Both the position numbers and the translations under genes were made by a program. A stretch of 32,525 bases of DNA. Source: a virus. Taxonomy: Duplodnaviria > Heunggongvirae > Uroviricota > Caudoviricetes. Shown piece by piece: positions 1 through 10,752 of this stretch. The DNA is taken from IMG/VR virus record IMGVR_UViG_651053023_000008. One strand, given 5' to 3'. The notes under the pieces are model-generated. The model saw only the letters and a program-made list of their open reading frames with translations, searched no databases and had not been told where the DNA came from. Position 1 is the stretch's first letter. Each line of letters opens with the position of its first letter.

Positions 1-1698
1 TTAAGGTGTGGGTTGTGCCTCTTTGGTTGAGGGTTGCGTCGTTGCTGACTTAACGGTCGGACGCGTCGCCGGAACATTGTCACACGGTTGCTCTTTCGGG
101 CAGATCAAATCCAGCATTTTCAGCGTCACGCCATTGGTCCAGCCAAAGCCATCCTGTAATGGATATTCGCCACCGCCGCCCTCCGTTCCGGTGGTGCTGA
201 CATCATATTTTTCCACCAGCTTTTTCTCCCGGTCATAGGTGTGCTGAACATTGGTCAGGAAGTGCCAGCTAATGTCCATCGCCACCTCTTTTTGCCCGTA
301 GTTTTGTAATCCTTCTGTCGCGACCCACTGTAACGGTGCCCAGCCATTTGGCGCATCCCATTGTTGCCCACTTTTCACCGACGTGGTGTTCAGGCCGCCG
401 GGTTGCAGCAGATGTGTTTTCGTCGCCGTCGCCATTTTGTTGGCGCGATCTTTCGCTGCCGCATTGACGTACAGCGGGAACAGGGCGGCCGCGGTTAACT
501 GATTGCGCACTTTATGACTTTTCAGGTCGTAATCGGCATACCAGCCTTGTTGATCGTTCCACAGGTATTTTTCGATCCCTTTTTGACGGGCATTTGCCAG
601 CGTTTCGTACTGGTTTGCCATCGCGTTATCTCCGGCAGCTTTGCTGGCGCGGGCGAGGATTTTTTCCATTTTAAACATCAGGCTGTTCAGATCGACCGGT
701 ACGATGCTGGTGGTGCGTAAGGTATTTAACTGCTGCGGGTTGTCCATCCAGCGCGAGCTGAAATCCCAGCCAGACGCAGCGGCAGAGCGCAGGTCGCGGT
801 AAATTTCAGTGGCAGGTCGATTCGGATTGCTTTTGGCGGTGGCAATATCTTCCACCCATGACTCTGGTCGTGGCGTATCGCGATCGTCCCAGTAGCGGTT
901 GAGAAGGGTACCATCCTGAAGTTTGACAACGCGTTTTTCCTGTTGTCCGGCTTGCAGGTTTTCAACACCGTCCATCCAGTAAGCATATTCTTTTTGCATT
1001 TGCGGCAGGTATTGCTTCAACGCGGCATCGCCTTCATGCTGCGCCAGTAACTCTACCATCAGGGCAAAGAAGGGCGGTTGCGAGCGGCTTAAATAGTAAC
1101 TGCGGTTGCCGTTGGGAATATGACCGTAAGTGTCTATTTCATGAGCAAAATTGGCCACCATATTCGCGACTTTATCCCAGTGACCGCTTTCGGCAAGTCC
1201 TAACATGGTGAAGTAACTGTCCCAGTAATATACCTCGCGAAAGCGTCCGCCCGGCACGACATAAGGTTCCGGCAGCGGTAACAGAGAATCCCATTTTTCG
1301 GTGTTTTCGGTAGAACGCGTTAATACCGGCCAAAGTCCGTCAATATGTTCGCGCAGTGACTGCCCCTCTGGCGGAACATATTTCTCGCCTTCTTTCGGCA
1401 GGGTGAAATTGACGTTAACGAAATGGCGCAGATCAAATCCGCTCTGGTTTTGCTGCATCCGATAATCAGCAAGGATCATCAGCGGATCGCTGTTCGGCAC
1501 GGCATCGGCAAAGGTTTTTTGGTCCGGAAAAAGTTTGGCGTTTTGCACATCATTAAACAGCGGCCCTAATAAAATATCAGGCGGCTGTGGTGTTACCGGT
1601 GTTTCTTCTGCCTGCACCGATAGCGCAGCGAAACACAAAAAGATACAGGCTGGAATTAACGCCATTTTTTGCGGGCGAGAAGGTGCGGGGGATTTCAT
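1..1698 (-). CDS. treA: periplasmic trehalase TreA (host gene)
   Basis: ORF 1..1701 (566 aa) with signal peptide ([20 protein letters not shown]) and family-37 trehalase length and sequence as I recall E. coli TreA. The first ORF codon is TTG per the sequence line; the second Met (ATG ending at 1698) is the likely start. Confidence 0.9.
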
Positions 1699-1826
1699 CA
1701 ATCATTCTCCTTTGGCGAAACCGAATAAAACGGTATTCAAGTATCAGAAAACCTTAGTTCAGGATCGCACTAGCTGCATGATCGAAATCTCATTCTGCGA
1801 ACTGTCAGGCATTTTAGAAAAGGGAA

Positions 1827-2010
1827 TGTATTGATTCACTTGAAGTACGAAAAAAACCGGGAGGACATTGGATTATTCGGGATTTGGCGGGATTAGATTT
1901 TGTGGGGCTTGCAAGCCTGTAGGACAGATTTTAGCCGTTACATCTTGAAACGCGAAAGATTGTTGGAAACAGCTTTTGATTCATTAAAGACACGAAAAGC
2001 AATTACTTCA
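1827..2010 (+). repeat. attL region with three candidate MuA end-binding sites (L1 about 1831-1853, L2 about 1944-1965, L3 about 1976-2000; approximate)
   Basis: Repeated ..TTCA..GAAG/AAAG..CGAAA(A/G) motifs (tgattcacttgaagtacgaaaaa; cttgaaacgcgaaagat; ttgattcattaaagacacgaaaag) resembling the MuA end-site consensus. Confidence 0.55.
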
Positions 2011-2165
2011 CGCATCATTTCAAGTACAGCTTCAAAAATGCTTCAAAAACGGTAACAACCAGGCTTTCAGCAAGTGATGTGTGTCAAAAATAATCATCAC
2101 TGTTTGGGTATCTTACATATGTAATTACCTGGAGTGAAGTTTATGTCTTAGCTATTACCTGGTTG

Positions 2166-2690
2166 TTATACAGCTTTCTTTACATCGTTTTCTCTTACAG
2201 GGAAATTATGTTCTTTGCCTTCATACTGAGACAAAATCTCTCTCACTTTTTCCGGTGGTAATGCCTGAAGAGTTTGCAGGGTTTTCTGTTGCTCCACAGT
2301 AATCCCTAATGCCTCTAATGCCTTATCTTTACTGACAATTGTAGGCATAAGTCCTTTAATCCCTGCTACACGAATGATCTCCACAGCTGCGGCCTGCTCA
2401 TCTGGTGTTAAGAAGCTCATTGCATAAATTAGCCTCTCATCAACTGTATGGGCGATTGATGTATGCACTGGTTTATCAGAAAGTGAGGCTCCTTTAATGG
2501 CCCTGCGTGTTTCTTCTGGCAGACTGTTGATGTGATACTCATAAGCGACACCTTTCCCACCGTGACGCTGACGTTTTACCCAATCTTCCGCCACAGCTTT
2601 CCTGGTAATGTTAGTCGCCAACTTTGGTACACCAGGCATCCCTTCCAGCTCTTTCGCATTAAACCATTCTTTGATTTCAAAAGACATCAT
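2166..2690 (-). CDS. c: Mu-type repressor (c-like)
   Basis: 174-aa ORF divergent from ner at the position of the Mu repressor. Its N-terminus ([34 protein letters not shown]) parallels the transposase N-terminus ([34 protein letters not shown]). Confidence 0.8.
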   Translation of the reverse strand: MMSFEIKEWFNAKELEGMPGVPKLATNITRKAVAEDWVKRQRHGGKGVAYEYHINSLPEETRRAIKGASLSDKPVHTSIAHTVDERLIYAMSFLTPDEQAAAVEIIRVAGIKGLMPTIVSKDKALEALGITVEQQKTLQTLQALPPEKVREILSQYEGKEHNFPVRENDVKKAV

Positions 2691-2875
2691 TTAAAATCCT
2701 AGTGATTTCAATAGAGACAAAATAAATTCATATAAAAATCATGCCGTTATATAAAATCATGGCAAATCATTTCAAATCACTATTGATTTGGAAGTGATTC
2801 CACACTACATTGCACGATATGCCGTGAGCTACTTTATAGCGTAGCTCACGGGGGAATCTGAAAGGATTACATGAA
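2691..2875. promoter_or_regulatory. operator and divergent promoter region between c and ner; candidate early promoter -35 TTGATT (2783-2788) and -10 TACATT (2806-2811)
   Basis: AT-rich intergenic region with many AAATCA/TGATTT half-site repeats; hexamers with 17-bp spacing upstream of ner. Confidence 0.5.
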
Positions 2876-3097
2876 ATGCATATGAATAAAAGAACTAACC
2901 GCCAAGATTGGCACAGAGCTGACATCGTTGCAGAGCTACGAAAACGCAATATGTCACTAGCTGAATTGGGAAGATCTAATCATCTTTCGTCTTCAACATT
3001 AAAAAATGCTTTGGATAAGAGATATCCGAAAGCGGAGAAAATCATTGCAGATGCACTGGGAATGACACCGCAAGATATTTGGCCGTCTCGATACTAG
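2876..3097 (+). CDS. ner: Ner-like DNA-binding regulator
   Basis: 73-aa ORF directly before the transposase with Ner-family motifs ([14 protein letters not shown]...LAELGR......STLKNAL...[24 protein letters not shown]). Confidence 0.85.
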
Positions 3098-3104
3098 GTG
3101 CGCT

Positions 3105-5093
3105 ATGAAAGAATGGTATACAGCAAAAGAGTTGCTCGGTTTGGCAGGTTTACCAAAGCAAGCCACTAACATTACACGTAAGGCACAAAGAGAAGGCTGG
3201 GAGTTCAGGCAGGTTGCAGGGACTAAAGGTGTATCATTTGAATTCAATATCAAATCATTCCCTGTCGCATTACGTGCTGAAATTCTGTTGCAACAAGGGA
3301 GAATTGAAACCAGTCAGGGGTATTTTGAAATCGCCCGCCCCACGCTGGAAGCCCATGATTATGATCGTGAGGCACTGTGGAGCAAATGGGATAACGCCAG
3401 CGATTCCCAGCGCAGACTTGCTGAAAAATGGTTGCCTGCGGTTCAGGCTGCAGACGAAATGCTGAACCAGGGGATTTCAACGAAAACGGCATTTGCGACC
3501 GTTGCAGGACATTACCAGGTCAGCGCATCCACTTTGCGAGACAAATATTACCAGGTACAGAAGTTTGCGAAGCCTGACTGGGCGGCTGCGCTTGTTGATG
3601 GACGTGGTGCATCCCGTCGCAACGTTCACAAAAGTGAATTTGACGAGGATGCCTGGCAGTTTCTGATTGCAGATTATCTGCGACCAGAAAAACCCGCCTT
3701 TCGCAAATGTTATGAGCGTCTGGAACTGGCAGCCCGCGAGCATGGCTGGAGTATTCCCTCCCGTGCCACGGCCTTTCGCCGGATTCAGCAACTGGACGAG
3801 GCAATGGTTGTTGCCTGCCGTGAAGGTGAACATGCACTGATGCATCTGATACCGGCACAGCAGCGAACTGTGGAACACCTGGACGCCATGCAGTGGATCA
3901 ACGGCGACGGTTATCTGCATAACGTCTTTGTACGCTGGTTTAACGGTGATGTGATCCGCCCGAAAACATGGTTCTGGCAGGATGTGAAAACCCGAAAAAT
4001 TCTGGGCTGGCGCTGCGATGTGAGCGAGAACATTGATTCAATTCGCCTCTCGTTCATGGATGTGGTGACACGCTACGGCATCCCGGAAGATTTTCACATC
4101 ACCATTGATAACACCCGTGGGGCAGCGAATAAATGGCTGACGGGGGGCGCGCCCAATCGTTACCGCTTTAAGGTGAAAGAGGACGATCCAAAGGGACTGT
4201 TTTTACTGATGGGCGCGAAAATGCACTGGACAAGCGTTGTTGCCGGTAAAGGCTGGGGCCAGGCAAAACCTGTTGAACGTGCTTTCGGTGTTGGTGGGCT
4301 TGAGGAATACGTTGATAAGCATCCGGCACTGGCTGGCGCATATACGGGGCCAAATCCGCAGGCAAAACCTGATAACTATGGCGACCGTGCTGTTGATGCA
4401 GAGCTGTTTCTGAAAACCCTTGCTGAAGGTGTGGCGATGTTCAATGCCAGAACAGGCCGTGAAACAGAAATGTGCGGGGGCAAACTCTCGTTTGATGATG
4501 TTTTCGAGCGTGAATACGCCAGAACGATTGTGCGTAAGCCAACCGAAGAACAAAAACGGATGCTGTTACTGCCTGCCGAAGCGGTGAACGTTTCACGCAA
4601 AGGCGAGTTTACGCTTAAAGTTGGCGGCTCCCTTAAAGGCGCGAAAAACGTTTATTACAACATGGCGTTAATGAATGCAGGCGTGAAAAAAGTTGTGGTC
4701 AGGTTTGATCCGCAGCAGCTACACAGCACAGTTTATTGCTACACCCTGGACGGTCGGTTTATCTGTGAAGCGGAATGTCTGGCACCTGTTGCATTTAATG
4801 ATGCTGCGGCAGGCCGTGAATATCGCCGCCGCCAGAAACAACTGAAATCTGCAACTAAAGCAGCCATTAAGGCGCAGAAACAAATGGACGCGCTGGAAGT
4901 TGCTGAACTGCTGCCGCAGATAGCCGAACCAGCAGCACCAGAATCAAGGGTTGTTGGTATTTTCCGGCCTGTGGGTAACACAGTACGGGTTAAATATCGC
5001 ACCCCCGATGATAAATACGAACCCGCTCGTGATGAATATCTGAATCAGTCACTGGATATTCTGGAACAGAAAAGACGTAAAAAAGCCATTTAA
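3105..5093 (+). CDS. A: Mu-type DDE transposase A
   Basis: 662 aa; N-terminal end and enhancer-binding domain, central catalytic core, C-terminal region, at the Mu A position; sequence closely matches MuA as I recall it. Confidence 0.95.
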
Positions 5094-5131: not shown

Positions 5132-6091
5132 ATGAATATTTCCGATATTCGCGCAGGACTGCGCACGCTTGTAGAAAATGGAGAAACCACGCTGACACGC
5201 ATCGCCAGTGAATCAGGCGTGGCCCTGAGCACAGTCAGTGGTTTTGTGAATGATAAATATAACGGCAACATGGAATCAGTCGGGCGCACACTGGAACGCT
5301 GGCTGGAAAACTATCACCGCGCAGAAGAACTGCCGGAACCCCCGCGTTTTGTGGAAACTGCAACAGCCCGTCAAATCTGGACAAGTATGCGTTTTGCTAA
5401 TCTGACCGGAACCATTGCTGTTATCTGCGGTAATCCAGGAGTGGGTAAAAGCGAAGCAGCCCGTGAATTTTGTCGCACTAATAATAATGTCTGGATGATC
5501 ACCATTGCGCCATCCCGTGCCAGTACGCTGGAATGTCTGACTGAACTTGCCGAAGAGTTGGGAATGAATAATGCACCATGTCGCAAAGGACCGCTTTCCC
5601 GTAACCTGCGTCGCCGCCTGAAAGGAACGCAGGGACTGGTCATTGTTGACGAAGCTGATCACCTTGACACCGAAGCGCTGGAAGAGCTCCGTCTGTTACA
5701 GGAGTCCGCCTGTATTGGTCTTGTTCTGATGGGGAATCACCGTGTTTATTCAAATATGACCGCTAATGGCGACAGAACAATTGAGTTTGCCCGTCTGTTT
5801 TCCCGTATTGCAAAGCGCACAGCAATTAATAAAACCAAAGAAGACGATGTAAACGCAATTGCGGATGCCTGGCAGATTACCGGGAAAAATGAACGGGAAT
5901 TATTACAGCAGATTGCACAAACGCCTGGTGCGCTCCGCATTATGAATCAAACGCTGCGCCTTGCTGTTATGAATGCCTTCGGTAAAGGCGAACGTGTTAA
6001 TGAGGATTATCTGCGTGAGGCTTACAAAGAGTTAGACCAGGACGTTGATGTTTCGATGCTGCTGGGTGTGCAAGGGGATGCTGAATCATGA
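5132..6091 (+). CDS. B: transposition ATPase and target-capture protein B
   Basis: 319 aa; Walker A motif GNPGVGKS; directly downstream of A. Confidence 0.9.
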
Positions 6092-7074: not shown

Positions 7075-7363
7075 ATGATACCCCCTCGTAAAAGATGGTC
7101 ACGTGAAGACCGGGAATTTATCGAAGCCAGTGTCGGGAAAATGACTGTTGAAGAAATGGCGAAAAAAACTGAACGTTGCCCCAACCGCCCTACAGGCACA
7201 TGCCAGAAGACACGGAATATCGTTGTGTGCATACCGGGTCAGTGAGCACGACAAATATTTGTGTCGTGAACTTTATAAAGAAGGGCTGGATATTCATGTC
7301 ATTACCCAAAAGATGGAATTAAGCAATCGTGCTGTATCCAGCATTGTATACAGCGAATATTAA
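7075..7363 (+). pseudogene. small HTH-like early gene split by a +1 frameshift in an A7 run (7162-7168)
   Basis: ATG 7075 with an AGGAGGG ribosome-binding site reads to a stop at 7245; ORF 7148..7363 continues in the next frame. Removing one A gives a single 95-aa product ...MTVEEMAKKLNVAPTALQAHARRHGISL.... Confidence 0.45.
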
Positions 7364-7383
7364 TTAACAGGAGCTTTATTTAT

Positions 7384-7908
7384 ATGGCTAAACCAGCAAA
7401 ACGAATCAAGAATGCAGCAGCGGCTTATGTTCCACAGTCCCGCGATGCCGTGGTATGTGATATCCGCCGGATTGGTGACCTGCAACGCGAAGCGGCACGA
7501 CTTGAAACGGAAATGAATGACGCTATCGCTGAAATTACAGAGAAATACGCCTCACAGATTGCGCCGCTAAAAACCAGTATCGAAACCCTTTCAAAAGGCG
7601 TTCAGGGATGGTGTGAAGCGAACCGTGACGAACTGACGAACGGCGGCAAGGTGAAGACGGCGAACCTGGTAACCGGCGATGTGTCATGGCGTCAGCGCCC
7701 ACCATCGGTAAGTATTCGCGGTGTGGATGCGGTGATGGAAACACTGGAGCGTCTTGGCCTGCAACGCTTTATTCGCACGAAACAGGAAATCAACAAGGAA
7801 GCGATTTTACTGGAACCGAAAGCGGTCGCAGGTGTTGCCGGAATTACAGTTAAATCAGGCATTGAAGATTTTTCTATTATTCCGTTTGAACAGGAAGCCG
7901 GTATTTAA
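7384..7908 (+). CDS. gam: Gam host-nuclease inhibitor (Mu Gam family)
   Basis: 174 aa, same length and sequence pattern as Mu Gam as I recall it. Confidence 0.9.
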   Translation: MAKPAKRIKNAAAAYVPQSRDAVVCDIRRIGDLQREAARLETEMNDAIAEITEKYASQIAPLKTSIETLSKGVQGWCEANRDELTNGGKVKTANLVTGDVSWRQRPPSVSIRGVDAVMETLERLGLQRFIRTKQEINKEAILLEPKAVAGVAGITVKSGIEDFSIIPFEQEAGI

Positions 7909-8006
7909 TATCACCATTAATATTTAATTAGTTCACTTTCTTTTAATTATGGCGCGATGCGTCAGGGGATTGCTCGCGCCTGAAACAGATTACTGAGGAA
8001 TAAAAA

Positions 8007-8546
8007 ATGGTTGATGCAAAAGTTCTGAACGGTGTCAGTACATTATTACGGGCTTACGGACGTCTGACCTGTGGCGTTCTGGCGGAAAAAATGAATATGC
8101 CACCTTCTTCAATGGTGTATTTCCTGCGTGATGCGGTTGATGCCGGAGTTCTCACTGAATGCAACGGATTTTATGACGTTCCGCGCCCTCGTCCGACGCC
8201 GCCAGTAAGACGAAACGCAACGGAGCACCCCGCTGTTGATGATGCTCAATGGTGCGCTTTCCGCCGCTCTTTGCCCTGGCTGGAAGGCAATGCCATTCCG
8301 GCACTGGCAAAAGAATTTGCGACAGGCGTACTGACCTGCGAGTCGGTTTACATCGTTGCTGAAGTGGATGACGAGATGTGCAAACAGGGGATGCCCCGTT
8401 TTGTGATGGCGTATATCGATATCCGACTGGGACGTTTTATTTGTGGCTCCAGTGGCTGGAATATCACCGACCACGTCCTGCGCTATCTCATTCTTGATTA
8501 TTCACCGGTTCCGGCGGCAACACAGGATGTCAGCGAGCATGGTTAA
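8007..8546 (+). CDS. hypothetical early protein with N-terminal winged-helix-like region
   Basis: 179-aa ORF; N-terminal LLRAYGRLTCGVLAEKMNMPPSSMVYFLRDAVDAGVL followed by a Pro-rich linker. Confidence 0.5.
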   Translation: MVDAKVLNGVSTLLRAYGRLTCGVLAEKMNMPPSSMVYFLRDAVDAGVLTECNGFYDVPRPRPTPPVRRNATEHPAVDDAQWCAFRRSLPWLEGNAIPALAKEFATGVLTCESVYIVAEVDDEMCKQGMPRFVMAYIDIRLGRFICGSSGWNITDHVLRYLILDYSPVPAATQDVSEHG

Positions 8547-8721
8547 GTCAATTGGCTTTGTCCTGCTGGTTGGTACTTGCGGGAATGATGCCTGTGATGC
8601 CATTCCGGTAACAGAAAAAATCTGGCCCACAGAACAGGCATGTATGCAGGTGATGGAGCGCATACAAAAACGTTATCCCAGTGAAATCTTTTATTGCGAA
8701 GAGGTATTAAGAAATGAATAA
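8539..8721 (+). CDS. small putative secreted protein or lipoprotein (moron)
   Basis: ATG overlaps the upstream stop. 60 aa; N-terminal hydrophobic segment ending ..LLVGTC (lipobox-like); GC content lower than the surrounding sequence. Confidence 0.4.
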   Translation: MVKSIGFVLLVGTCGNDACDAIPVTEKIWPTEQACMQVMERIQKRYPSEIFYCEEVLRNE

Positions 8722-9103
8722 CGCAGAGAAAAATGAAATTAAATCCGCATCCGCCAGCACCAGAAAGCATCTTCATGATTTTTATGTTGCCTATAACCAG
8801 TGGTTAAAAAATGGTGTACCAGAAACAGAGGGTGAAATATTTGTTCAATATTCAGGATTATGTACAAATGCTTGTCGTTATTTTGACGAAATCGGAGTGG
8901 ATACCGAAGATATATTAGAACAATTACGTGCAGATTTTATCGCGAACGAGTTGGATGAATTATTACCTTTCAATGAAAGTGGAACGCACTATCATGAGGA
9001 ATGCAGACTTGGCAGATGTCACCTGAATTCTGCTCGTGTGGCATGGGTCGAAAAACACTGCATTAAGGAGATGGGACATAATGAGCCGCACATCCCTGAT
9101 TAA
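8714..9103 (+). CDS. hypothetical protein (AT-rich moron)
   Basis: 129-aa ORF; visibly AT-rich compared with flanking phage genes; Cys and His rich C-terminal half. Confidence 0.5.
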   Translation: MNNAEKNEIKSASASTRKHLHDFYVAYNQWLKNGVPETEGEIFVQYSGLCTNACRYFDEIGVDTEDILEQLRADFIANELDELLPFNESGTHYHEECRLGRCHLNSARVAWVEKHCIKEMGHNEPHIPD

Positions 9104-9632
9104 ATTAATTCATGTCGCCCGTCGGGAATTGCAACTTGACGATGACACTTACCGCGCCTTTCTGGTGCAGTGCACGGGCAAAACCAGTTGCCGCGAGCTG
9201 TCCGTTGCACAACTGGAACGGGTGCTCGATGCCATGAAAGAGCGCGGTTTTAAGAAGCAGAAAAAACATCCCCGCCGTCGCTTTAAGGGGCATGTCACAC
9301 CACGCGAGAAGATTTACAAAATCTGGCAGCAGATGTTTCTTGATGGTTTCGTCTCCGATATCAGCGACGCCGCGCTGGACAAATACGTTGAACGCCTGAC
9401 GGCCAGACGTAATGGCGGTCAGGGTGTTTCCACGCTGGCCTGGTGTCACGGGGAATCGTTGCAGGTTGTGCTCGAAACGCTCAAACAGTGGCACATGCGC
9501 TGCATCCGTGAAGCCTTTGCCCGACATGGTGTGCCTTTACCTGTAAGCCCATCCGGGCGGGAACTGCGCGGCTATGATGCACTGACCAGTGCATATGCCC
9601 GCGCACGAAACAGCGGGAGAATTGCTGTATGA
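9081..9632 (+). CDS. gemA: GemA-like protein (Mu gp16 family)
   Basis: Internal ATG 9081 with an AAGGAG ribosome-binding site; 183 aa; position immediately upstream of mor; N-terminal LIHVARRELQLDDDTYRAFL motif. Confidence 0.65.
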   Translation: MSRTSLIKLIHVARRELQLDDDTYRAFLVQCTGKTSCRELSVAQLERVLDAMKERGFKKQKKHPRRRFKGHVTPREKIYKIWQQMFLDGFVSDISDAALDKYVERLTARRNGGQGVSTLAWCHGESLQVVLETLKQWHMRCIREAFARHGVPLPVSPSGRELRGYDALTSAYARARNSGRIAV

Positions 9633-10078
9633 AACAGATGAAAGAGCAGGATTTGTTCGAAGACCTTCGGGACGACAGCGTTCTGGAATATCTTCATGAT
9701 TACCAGGAAAACACCGCTTATCCGGCGTTACTTTCTGAACTGAACGCACTGCTGCGTAAAGAGCTGGCCCGGATTGGCGCAGACCCTGCCCATTCCCTTG
9801 AGCTGGTTGTGGCGATTTGTCGCCATATCGGCGGGATGCAGGTTTATGTTCCGAGGGGGAATATTCTGGAGAATCTTGTCCGGGATATGCGTATCTGGCG
9901 TGATTTTAACGGCCATAATATTCCTGAACTGGTTCAGCGTTACGGGGTGACGTATAAAACCGTCTACAAGGCCATCAAACGGATGCGACGTCTGGAGCGC
10001 AATAAATACCAGCCGGATTTGTTTTACCTCTCCCCGAACCTGCCTCACCCCGTTCGTCGTCCGCCACGACGCCCTTAA
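9629..10078 (+). CDS. mor: Mor/C-family transcriptional activator
   Basis: 149 aa with a Mor-family C-terminal HTH (VYVPRG...IWRDFNG.N..EL..RYGV....VYKAIKRMRR), located at the end of the early operon and followed by a terminator. Confidence 0.8.
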   Translation: MKQMKEQDLFEDLRDDSVLEYLHDYQENTAYPALLSELNALLRKELARIGADPAHSLELVVAICRHIGGMQVYVPRGNILENLVRDMRIWRDFNGHNIPELVQRYGVTYKTVYKAIKRMRRLERNKYQPDLFYLSPNLPHPVRRPPRRP

Positions 10079-10084
10079 TCAATG

Positions 10085-10108
10085 AAGCCGGTAAATCCGG
10101 CTTTTTTT
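10085..10108 (+). terminator. rho-independent terminator after mor (stem AGCCGG, loop TAAAT, stem CCGGCT, T7)
   Basis: Perfect 6-bp stem hairpin followed by seven T, 7 nt after the mor stop. Confidence 0.7.
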
Positions 10109-10122
10109 ATGCCTCCGGCACC

Positions 10123-10752
10123 ATGAAGCAGACCACGTTTAACTCTGCTTCACAGGTGCTTTTTATGGAAAATCTAAAATTATATCTGGCCTTTGAGCGT
10201 GCGCTGAATTTTATTCTGCGTCCTGATATCGAAGGCGTCTATGTCAATGACCCCACTGACCGTGGCGGAGAAACCAGGTACGGCATCTCTGACCGCCGCG
10301 ACGGTGTGATTGACGGCAAAACTGACGTCAACGGTGATGGTAAACCCGACACCCGCATTAAGGATTTTACCCGCGAACAGGTTGCGCAGATTTACTGGCG
10401 CGATTACTGGCTGCCTGCCGGGTGTGACCAGTGGCCTGACAGAGTGGCGCTTTTTGTGTTCGATGCGGCGGTTCAGCATGGTGTTAAAAAAGCCATCAAA
10501 CTTTTGCAGGAAGCCACTGATATCAATGCCGATGGCATCATCGGCCCGCGCACCCGCAGGGCCGTGAACCTGGCTGACCAGAACTGGTTGCTGACCCGCT
10601 GTATTGTCCGTCGTTCCCGCTTTTATGCCGAAATCATCAAATCAAAACCCGCCCAGGGCAAATACCTGAACGGCTGGTTTAACCGCATGGAAAAACTGAC
10701 CGACGCCTGTCTGGAAATCATCGACAACGCGCCGTCCACCACGCGGGGGTGA
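10123..10752 (+). CDS. endolysin, GH108-like N-terminal domain plus peptidoglycan-binding C-terminal domain
   Basis: EGVYVNDPTDRGGETRYGI motif typical of glycoside hydrolase family 108; no N-terminal transmembrane segment. Alternative start at ATG 10165 (MENLKL) has a better ribosome-binding site. Confidence 0.75.
   Translation: MKQTTFNSASQVLFMENLKLYLAFERALNFILRPDIEGVYVNDPTDRGGETRYGISDRRDGVIDGKTDVNGDGKPDTRIKDFTREQVAQIYWRDYWLPAGCDQWPDRVALFVFDAAVQHGVKKAIKLLQEATDINADGIIGPRTRRAVNLADQNWLLTRCIVRRSRFYAEIIKSKPAQGKYLNGWFNRMEKLTDACLEIIDNAPSTTRG

Follow-up and report, generated by a model that had tools for sequence, protein, structure and literature searches.

Two small genes between gp11 and gemA of a Mu-like Escherichia coli prophage as exchangeable early-operon cassettes with a putative role in host takeover or counter-defense

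In a Mu-like prophage of Escherichia coli (IMG/VR record IMGVR_UViG_651053023_000008), contained with its host junction in the 32,525-nucleotide (nt) stretch of DNA analyzed here and hereafter called the window, two small genes lie between gp11 and gemA; we refer to them as gene 1 and gene 2 and, together, as the block. The explanation that we favor, with a probability of roughly 0.6 for the whole of it, is that the block consists of two independently exchangeable accessory cassettes in a hypervariable slot of the semi-essential early region, that both genes would be carried on the long early transcript and expressed solely in lytic growth, and that they most likely represent, as judged from sequence, dispensable early cargo for host takeover or counter-defense. 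The features that make up the block are as follows.

8539 to 8721, plus strand: gene 1, 60 amino acids (aa), four invariant cysteines, phrog_16556
8714 to 9103, plus strand: gene 2, 129 aa, acidic, modeled as all-helical; domain at about residues 18 to 116 corresponding to phrog_6418/phrog_2510
8519 to 9077, no strand: replaced segment, without homology to Mu, D108, or SfMu, in place of Mu gp12 to gp15
8714 to 8744, plus strand: cassette junction, with the ATGAATAA start/stop overlap and the shared MNN..E.K leader

Packing, composition, and coding character of the block

The initial annotation described two tightly packed genes between gam and a GemA-like gene, and both open reading frames (ORFs) are indeed found at 8539 to 9103 on the plus strand, overlapping their neighbors; the right border is gemA, as described there, and the left neighbor is gp11, not gam. 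In particular, the ATG of gene 1 lies 8 nt inside gp11 and overlaps its stop codon, the ATG of gene 2 lies 8 nt inside gene 1 and overlaps the stop of the latter in turn (ATGAATAA), and gemA starts at an ATG (9081) located 23 nt within gene 2. If the in-frame ATG at 8527 were used, gene 1 would be longer by the residues MSAS; this ATG is missing in the relative RIVM_C019217. Since the genes overlap their neighbors, we describe the block as an in-operon cassette, and, because starts and stops overlap, the simplest reading is that both genes belong to the early transcript. In Mu, the genes of this transcript are silent in the lysogen and are made early in lytic growth; expression of the block, as we infer it from the gene arrangement, should likewise be restricted to the lytic phase.

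Homology to Mu, D108, and SfMu, as detected by blastn, ends at 8518 and restarts at 9078, and the Mu gp12 to gp15 stretch that the block replaces measures about 1.3 kb. The proteins encoded in the block and those of Mu gp12 to gp15 are unrelated, and the earlier impression that neither gene could be placed in canonical Mu thus extends to D108 and SfMu. The gene borders are the exact points at which Mu gp12 to gp15 have been replaced by the cassettes, and the block is foreign, non-Mu cargo acquired from elsewhere. The block had also been called AT-richer than its surroundings, and the GC profile bears this out: its GC content is 40.7%, compared to 53.7% for the window, and 2.4% of the segments of the same size are as low. 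The GC content at third codon positions is 0.41 in gene 1 and 0.33 in gene 2, and it ranges from 0.46 to 0.61 in the neighboring genes. The sole other part of the window that is comparably AT rich, with values down to 38% GC, is found at 1528 to 3335, where the repressor gene and the early control region are located.

In E. coli STEC346, which is 99.9% identical in this region, RefSeq lists both genes as hypothetical proteins (WP_000240903 and WP_001057678). Between prophage alleles, the ratio of nonsynonymous to synonymous substitution rates (dN/dS) amounts to 0.12 in gene 1 and 0.30 in gene 2; gp11 was left out of this calculation, as indels misalign its codons in a simple codon alignment. 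Purifying selection acts on both genes, which these values identify as genuinely coding. An Rfam scan and a repeat search over the block found nothing.

The gp11-gemA slot as a hotspot of exchangeable cassettes

We gathered 80 IMG/VR relatives of gp11 and mapped the known cassettes between gp11 and gemA. Among 65 complete gp11-gemA intervals (64 from the IMG/VR relatives, plus the window), at least 14 different arrangements could be distinguished, with lengths from 62 to about 2,900 bp; gene 1 is present in 17 and gene 2 in 9 of these 65 intervals, and gene 2 was also found ahead of gp13. The slot is empty in one relative (L123, IMGVR_UViG_3300045988_125570), where gp11 and gemA are separated by a gap of 62 bp without any gene, from which it follows that the whole slot is dispensable. 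The expectation of the initial annotation that the semi-essential region is a typical site for cargo therefore agrees well with what the slot displays, namely, an exchange hotspot with 14 arrangements, one of them empty. Among 5,426 complete E. coli genomes, gene 1 occurs in 48 and gene 2 in 13.

The two genes are also exchanged separately. In E. coli RIVM_C019217, the place of gene 2 downstream of gene 1 is taken by a gp14-like gene and a reverse-strand gp15-like gene, and in TD225-C4 gene 2 comes straight after gp11, with just the final 44 nt of gene 1 remaining. Each cassette is hence found without the other in relatives, and each occurs in unrelated phages. The comparison of the window with RIVM_C019217, which carries the other downstream cassette, shows that homology extends 30 nt into gene 2 and then breaks. 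Furthermore, unrelated cassettes (Mu gp14, both SfMu gp14-like genes, and D108 gp14) all start with ATGAA(T/C)AA, encoding MNN, often followed by E.K, and such MNN starts directly follow or overlap the preceding stop in the window (8714 to 8744) as well as at 2437 in L001, at 2981 and 3286 in L002, and at 2438 in L003. These shared starts suggest that cassettes recombine at short common junctions. The synonymous divergence (dS) between two prophages is 0.48 for gene 2 against 0.13 to 0.22 for the flanking genes of the same pair, which fits a separate history of gene 2. We are confident of this description of the block as exchangeable cassettes within the early operon.

Some E. coli copies of gene 1 (P0016, P0017, and P0018) are frameshifted after about residue 27, and their sequences suggest that the gene is decaying in some prophages.

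Gene 1: a small four-cysteine protein with a possible relationship to YebW

The gene 1 protein matches PHROG 16556 with an E value of 1.2e-28, and a profile search retrieved 255 relatives, all of about 56 to 69 aa, across the Enterobacterales. In the 117 members on which the family statistics rest, there are exactly four cysteines per protein, at invariant positions (C14, C19, C35, and C53 in the numbering of the window protein), and it is possible to hypothesize that they hold a metal or form disulfides. The AlphaFold2 model has a predicted local distance difference test (pLDDT) score of 87, with a mean of 88 over residues 1 to 10, and its predicted fold is beta-beta-alpha-beta, with residues 3 to 12 forming a beta-strand. 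No membrane helix was found in the protein, whose best 19-residue hydropathy score is 1.22.

Homologues of gene 1 lie between RecT and xis/int in the Aeromonas phage pAEv1818 and in a Serratia prophage, and in Yersinia phages a homologue is found in the same early-left region, with a holE-like gene as its neighbor and xis/int six genes downstream. Further copies occupy apparently nonprophage chromosomal sites in Yersinia, Mixta, Winslowiella, and Erwinia.

A possible relative among host proteins is YebW, of Pfam family DUF1482 (PF07358). Like the gene 1 protein, YebW has about 60 aa, a hydrophobic N terminus running into the first of four cysteines, and the pattern C...C[DE]..V..[YF].TEQ.C; the E. 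coli protein starts with MFALVLFVC, followed by five residues and then CEDIVVDVYNTEQQC, in the same general build. Different from gene 1, the spacing of the cysteines is another one, and the C-terminal halves cannot be aligned. The window protein gave no match to DUF1482, and weak matches were obtained for 3 of the 117 members at an E value of ≤1; two members scored singly reached E values of 0.04 to 0.07 and 13.6 to 14.3 bits, with a cut-off of 25. The alignment with hhalign of the 117-member family to 67 YebW sequences returned a P value of 0.0088 and a probability of 4.6%; here, the first three cysteines and the Y.TEQ.C motif align, and the fourth cysteine does not, a result that is suggestive and stays below significance. 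Some support for a relationship comes from the shared yebY/holE neighborhood. The Serratia prophage (L178, 5001 to 10032), with the order RecT, gene 1 homologue, xis, int, is integrated beside yebY-yebZ-yobA-ftn-holE, and in E. coli K-12 (L017, 4781 to 8339) yebV-yebW-pphA adjoins yebY-yebZ-yobA-holE, so that an old prophage at the yebY-holE site may have left behind both yebW and the lambda-phosphatase-like pphA. On the basis of these similarities, gene 1 may be distantly related to YebW.

Gene 2: a widespread phage domain

The gene 2 protein matches PHROG 6418 and PHROG 2510 with E values of 8.2e-41 and 5.4e-31, respectively, and covers about half of these profiles, which comprise about 220 to 230 positions. 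The domain corresponds to residues 18 to 116, approximately, and is preceded by a junction leader (residues 1 to 17, MNNAEKNE...). Gene 2 carries a single, stand-alone copy of this domain of roughly 100 residues, which very different phages have in their early or accessory regions. An exhaustive search yielded 443 representative clusters at an E value of ≤1e-3, most of them stand-alone proteins of 95 to 130 aa, some carrying the domain two or three times and some fused to other modules, and tblastn located the domain in 240 phage records. Two to four copies each are carried by phAPEC8-like and related large E. coli phages; the domain is also present in N4 (gp3) and in phages of Achromobacter, Rhizobium, Erwinia, Klebsiella, Campylobacter, and Burkholderia, a lambdoid copy lies directly upstream of the integrase gene, and in lambdoid prophages the domain forms part of modular proteins encoded at the integrase end.

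Within the family, W30, C50, P85, F86, and R108 are invariant; L20, F23, Y24, Y27, G34, F43, G48, L49, Y93, N105, and W111 are nearly so; and N52, E70, N87, E96, H103 (80%), and C102 (60%) are common. The AlphaFold2 model (pLDDT of 87) consists of five helices. Helix 2 begins at residue 49, which places Cys50 just within it, and His103, Asn105, and Arg108 are located immediately before or within helix 5. Fusion partners were considered as a clue to function and were dropped, since among the 46 multidomain members Lar restriction alleviation, a dATP/dGTP pyrophosphohydrolase with DUF7415, and DUF551 turned up in one case each, which is not enough to base a conclusion on. We could also observe that the C-terminal tail of the lambdoid gene 2-domain protein P0022 (...AHADVTNILIEELKEHQTA) closely resembles the lambda ORF between xis and ea8.5 (NP_597778; L016, 319 to 486); by this resemblance, the tail appears as an example of module shuffling among early-region proteins.

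Alternative explanations

The initial annotation called gene 1 lipoprotein-like and pointed to superinfection exclusion or receptor blocking. On this reading, gene 1 would encode a small secreted lipoprotein working at the envelope, where it would exclude superinfecting phage or mask a receptor, as T5 Llp and the Cor proteins of phi80 and N15 do, and the start of the protein (MVKSIGFVLLVGTC) has a lipoprotein-like appearance, with a hydrophobic N terminus followed by an invariant Cys. In the 117 members, the box ending in this Cys is the canonical LVSAC in 59, LVSPC in 24, LVSSC in 15, and LVGTC in 5, and the simple pattern [LVI][ASTVI][GAS]C is matched by 81; moreover, Lys3 is present in the window protein, and T5 Llp illustrates how a lipoprotein made early in lytic growth can be biologically meaningful. 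The PROSITE PS51257-type rule nevertheless demands Ala, Gly, or Ser at position -1, the Cys at positions 15 to 35, and at least one Lys or Arg among the first seven residues, and the window protein, with Thr at -1 (LVGTC) and the Cys at position 14, fails both lipobox regular expressions and the rule on the position of the Cys. A Lys or Arg within the first seven residues is found in 7 of the 117 members, and the full rule is passed by 2. Most members begin with MLIGFVLLVSxC and lack a charged n-region, the first Cys is at position 12 in 84, the residues before it have no net charge in 103, and Pro occupies position -1 in 24. This short uncharged N terminus is real, since in a Yersinia chromosomal copy a stop codon three codons upstream and an AAGGAG Shine-Dalgarno site fix the start, and it is unlike a signal peptide, because conservation in the hydrophobic segment is among the highest along the protein (mean frequency of the top residue, 0.91 for residues 4 to 13 compared to 0.56 to 0.72 for residues 27 to 60). 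The placement of residues 3 to 12 in the modeled beta-sheet and the low hydropathy score likewise speak against export, cleavage would leave three free cysteines, an odd number, and Mu adsorbs to lipopolysaccharide, not to a protein receptor. We thus consider a lipoprotein quite unlikely and the gene 1 protein probably cytoplasmic, its hydrophobic N terminus being modeled as a core strand; if the protein is not exported, superinfection exclusion and receptor blocking lose their main support. The same conserved hydrophobic face (IGFVLLV) could instead belong to a small membrane-active or toxic peptide, with Kil-type killing or a division block exerted through the N terminus; small toxic proteins are common in the early regions of Mu and lambda, and, in a gain-of-function screen (PMC9676061), overexpression of the possibly related yebW in E. 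coli was reported to increase resistance to three antibiotics, which hints at an effect on the envelope. A hydrophobic stretch of 8 to 9 residues is too short to span a membrane, though, the model is confidently globular, stable chromosomal copies exist in Yersinia, Mixta, and Winslowiella without a visible antitoxin partner, and the link to YebW is itself tentative, so that this possibility has a slim chance of being correct.

Gene 2 had been described as Cys/His rich, which would agree with a protein that binds zinc, such as a transcriptional regulator of the zinc-finger type acting on the phage or the host. The window protein does contain 5 Cys and 8 His in 129 residues, and Cys102-His103 is a common motif in the family; this richness is not conserved, however, the family medians being 3 Cys and 3 His, and Cys50 is the sole invariant cysteine, with Cys102 at 60% and His103 at 80% and with Cys54, Cys97, and Cys116 not conserved. 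There are no CxxC or HxxH pairs and no zinc-finger ligand pattern, and the five-helix bundle of the model has no zinc-ribbon or treble-clef element, all of which makes this reading very improbable. The block as a whole had been called a moron, which in the strict sense would be an autonomous unit that is active in the repressed prophage and alters the lysogen (lysogenic conversion). What can be recognized of a moron is the deviating base composition, with GC below that of the backbone, and the patchy presence among relatives, including the 48 and 13 E. coli genomes mentioned above. A promoter and a terminator of its own are not recognizable: a sigma-70 consensus scan of 7300 to 10300 found 0 promoter-like sites, against 4.0 expected from shuffles, and in the same region no plus strand terminator was found before 10084, none flanking the block included. 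At the place equivalent to 10084 to 10104, D108 has an annotated rho-independent terminator. Both genes overlap neighboring early genes, over 5 kb of the early operon precede the block on the same strand, and other phages also hold these genes inside early operons. An autonomous moron was therefore rejected as extremely improbable, and a pair of cassettes expressed within the early operon is preferred.

Proposed function and significance

For these cassettes, we suggest that gene 2 would encode a cytoplasmic host-takeover or counter-defense module. Its conserved polar residues (Cys50, Asn52, Glu96, His103, Asn105, and Arg108) could form the center of a small enzyme or a ligand pocket, and, because these residues are many and the hosts range from Rhizobium to Campylobacter, the pocket would act on a target that is widely conserved and shared by many bacteria. 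Gene 1, in turn, would most likely be a tiny alpha/beta cytoplasmic modulator with four cysteines, related to small genes that other temperate phages carry near the integrase end, and perhaps to YebW. A precedent is offered by the Mu early-region gene E6/Mup07, reported to be a host-modifying accessory gene, gnarl2 (bioRxiv 10.1101/2023.04.06.535777), which by analogy fits the host-takeover picture of the block.

Several observations weigh against our explanation. The initial annotation suggested profile and structure searches for both proteins, and these returned the PHROG families, both of which PHROG lists as of unknown function, and nothing significant in Pfam, NCBIfam, or PADLOC; there was no match to PDB chain sequences with either single sequences or profiles, and neither a PADLOC model nor a fold match to a solved counter-defense protein was found. 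For neither protein was a homologue with a known role found. The enzyme or ligand pocket of gene 2 is suggested by residue conservation, the LVSAC box in 59 of the 117 members of the gene 1 family leaves room for export, and a weak or factor-dependent promoter, beyond the reach of the sigma-70 scan, may lie inside the block. In addition, a Pfam scan of all members of the gene 2 family revealed no recurrent weak matches, and a literature search on the accession numbers, the PHROG identifiers, DUF1482, N4 gp3, and the Mu semi-essential region brought up no study of function. We accordingly regard the functional proposals for both genes as tentative.

A bolder version can be formulated, in which gene 2 stands for a large and as yet unnamed family of small enzymes or ligand binders of phages, centered on Cys50, His103, Asn105, and Arg108 and gene 1 is a YebW-related host mimic. 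We deem it unlikely that both parts hold; if they did, gene 2 would have a helical fold unseen in solved structures and would be used early by N4-like, phAPEC8-like, lambdoid, Mu-like, Rhizobium, and Burkholderia phages against a conserved target or immune signal, and gene 1 would be a phage-borne four-cysteine protein mimicking or overriding the host YebW.

The two genes as hypothetical proteins, both PHROG families, and the type of region were already known, and for the window alone our results are mainly a correction, in that the block is read neither as a lipoprotein nor as a zinc protein nor as a moron. In a wider context, the variable parts of phage early operons are a source of many counter-defense and host-modifying genes; the gp11-gemA slot can be added to such hotspots, and both of its occupants in the window are here placed in wider families. 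The gene 2 domain, in particular, occurs in phage protein clusters by the hundreds and has no Pfam entry, no solved structure, and no assigned role, so that one functional assay in the tractable Mu or N4 systems would annotate many phage genes together.

Genomic setting

The surroundings of the block follow the gene order of a Mu-like prophage.

1 to 1701, minus strand: host trehalase ORF, full length
1827 to 1849: exact 23-nt match to the Mu left-end sequence
2166 to 2690, minus strand: Mu-type repressor gene
3105 to 5093, strand as expected for Mu: transposase A gene, upstream of the block
5132 to 6091, strand as expected for Mu: transposase B gene, upstream of the block
7384 to 7908: gam, one gene farther upstream than gp11
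8007 to 8546, plus strand: Mu gp11 homologue (PF25754 Gp11_C, E value of 3e-39; phrog_1949), conserved left border of the variable slot
9081 to 9632, plus strand: gemA (gp16 family; PF06252, E value of 9e-33; RefSeq annotation in STEC346), conserved right border of the slot
9629 to 10078: mor
10084 to 10104, plus strand: first intrinsic-terminator-like site downstream of the block, just after mor
10123 to 10752: GH108 endolysin gene

Since the match to the Mu left end stands 126 bp from the host trehalase ORF, the window includes the prophage-host junction. Upstream of the block, the segment from 7301 to 8518, which includes gp11, has 88% nucleotide identity to Mu as determined by blastn. A second break in homology occurs at 9999 to 10076, at the end of mor: the Mor ORF of the window has 149 aa and is directly followed by the terminator and the endolysin gene, and in STEC346, RIVM_C019217, and TD225-C4 Mor has 136 aa and an additional gene (159 to 165 aa) precedes that of the endolysin. 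The end of mor thus looks like another variable spot.

Comparison with known systems

The closest counterpart of the block by position is the gp12 to gp15 region (E13 to E15) of Mu, D108, and SfMu, which shares with it the gp11-gemA slot, the strand, the tight packing, and the small unassigned proteins. Mu gp13 and gp14, with GC contents of 0.475 and 0.455, are below their flanks, as is the block, and the downstream cassettes of Mu, D108, and SfMu have the ATGAATAA or MNN start in common with gene 2. Different from these phages, the window has neither gp12 nor a reverse-strand gp15, and there is no sequence similarity between the two sets of genes. The equivalence of gene 1 to Mu gp13, both of 60 aa and in the same position, was considered and rejected, as the sequences are unrelated and gp13 is cysteine rich of the CxxC type.

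T5 Llp and the Cor proteins of phi80 and N15, which block the receptor FhuA, resemble gene 1 as small, early-expressed phage genes, a likeness by function and not by sequence comparison. Llp and Cor have ordinary charged lipoprotein signal peptides, whereas gene 1 fails the signal-peptide rule and is modeled as a soluble fold.

With respect to gene 2, N4 gp3 shows 34% identity (tblastn) and a location in the early region, and N4 gp3, PHROG 6418/2510, and gene 2 share the motifs FY.AY..W...GA, GLC.N, PFN, and CHLN..R..WV. Many members of the two PHROG families have extra domains or a second copy, different from gene 2, which is in turn distinguished from them and from N4 gp3 by its Mu-specific 17-residue leader.

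Finally, the exo-xis region of lambda (orf60a, orf61, orf63, and ea22) can be compared to the Mu early region. A comparison by eye of the translations of lambda orf60a, orf61, orf63, ea8.5, and ea22 with both window proteins revealed no similarity. Like the Mu early region, the exo-xis region is a dispensable stretch of an early operon with many exchangeable small genes, and homologues of both window genes are found in such regions of other temperate phages.

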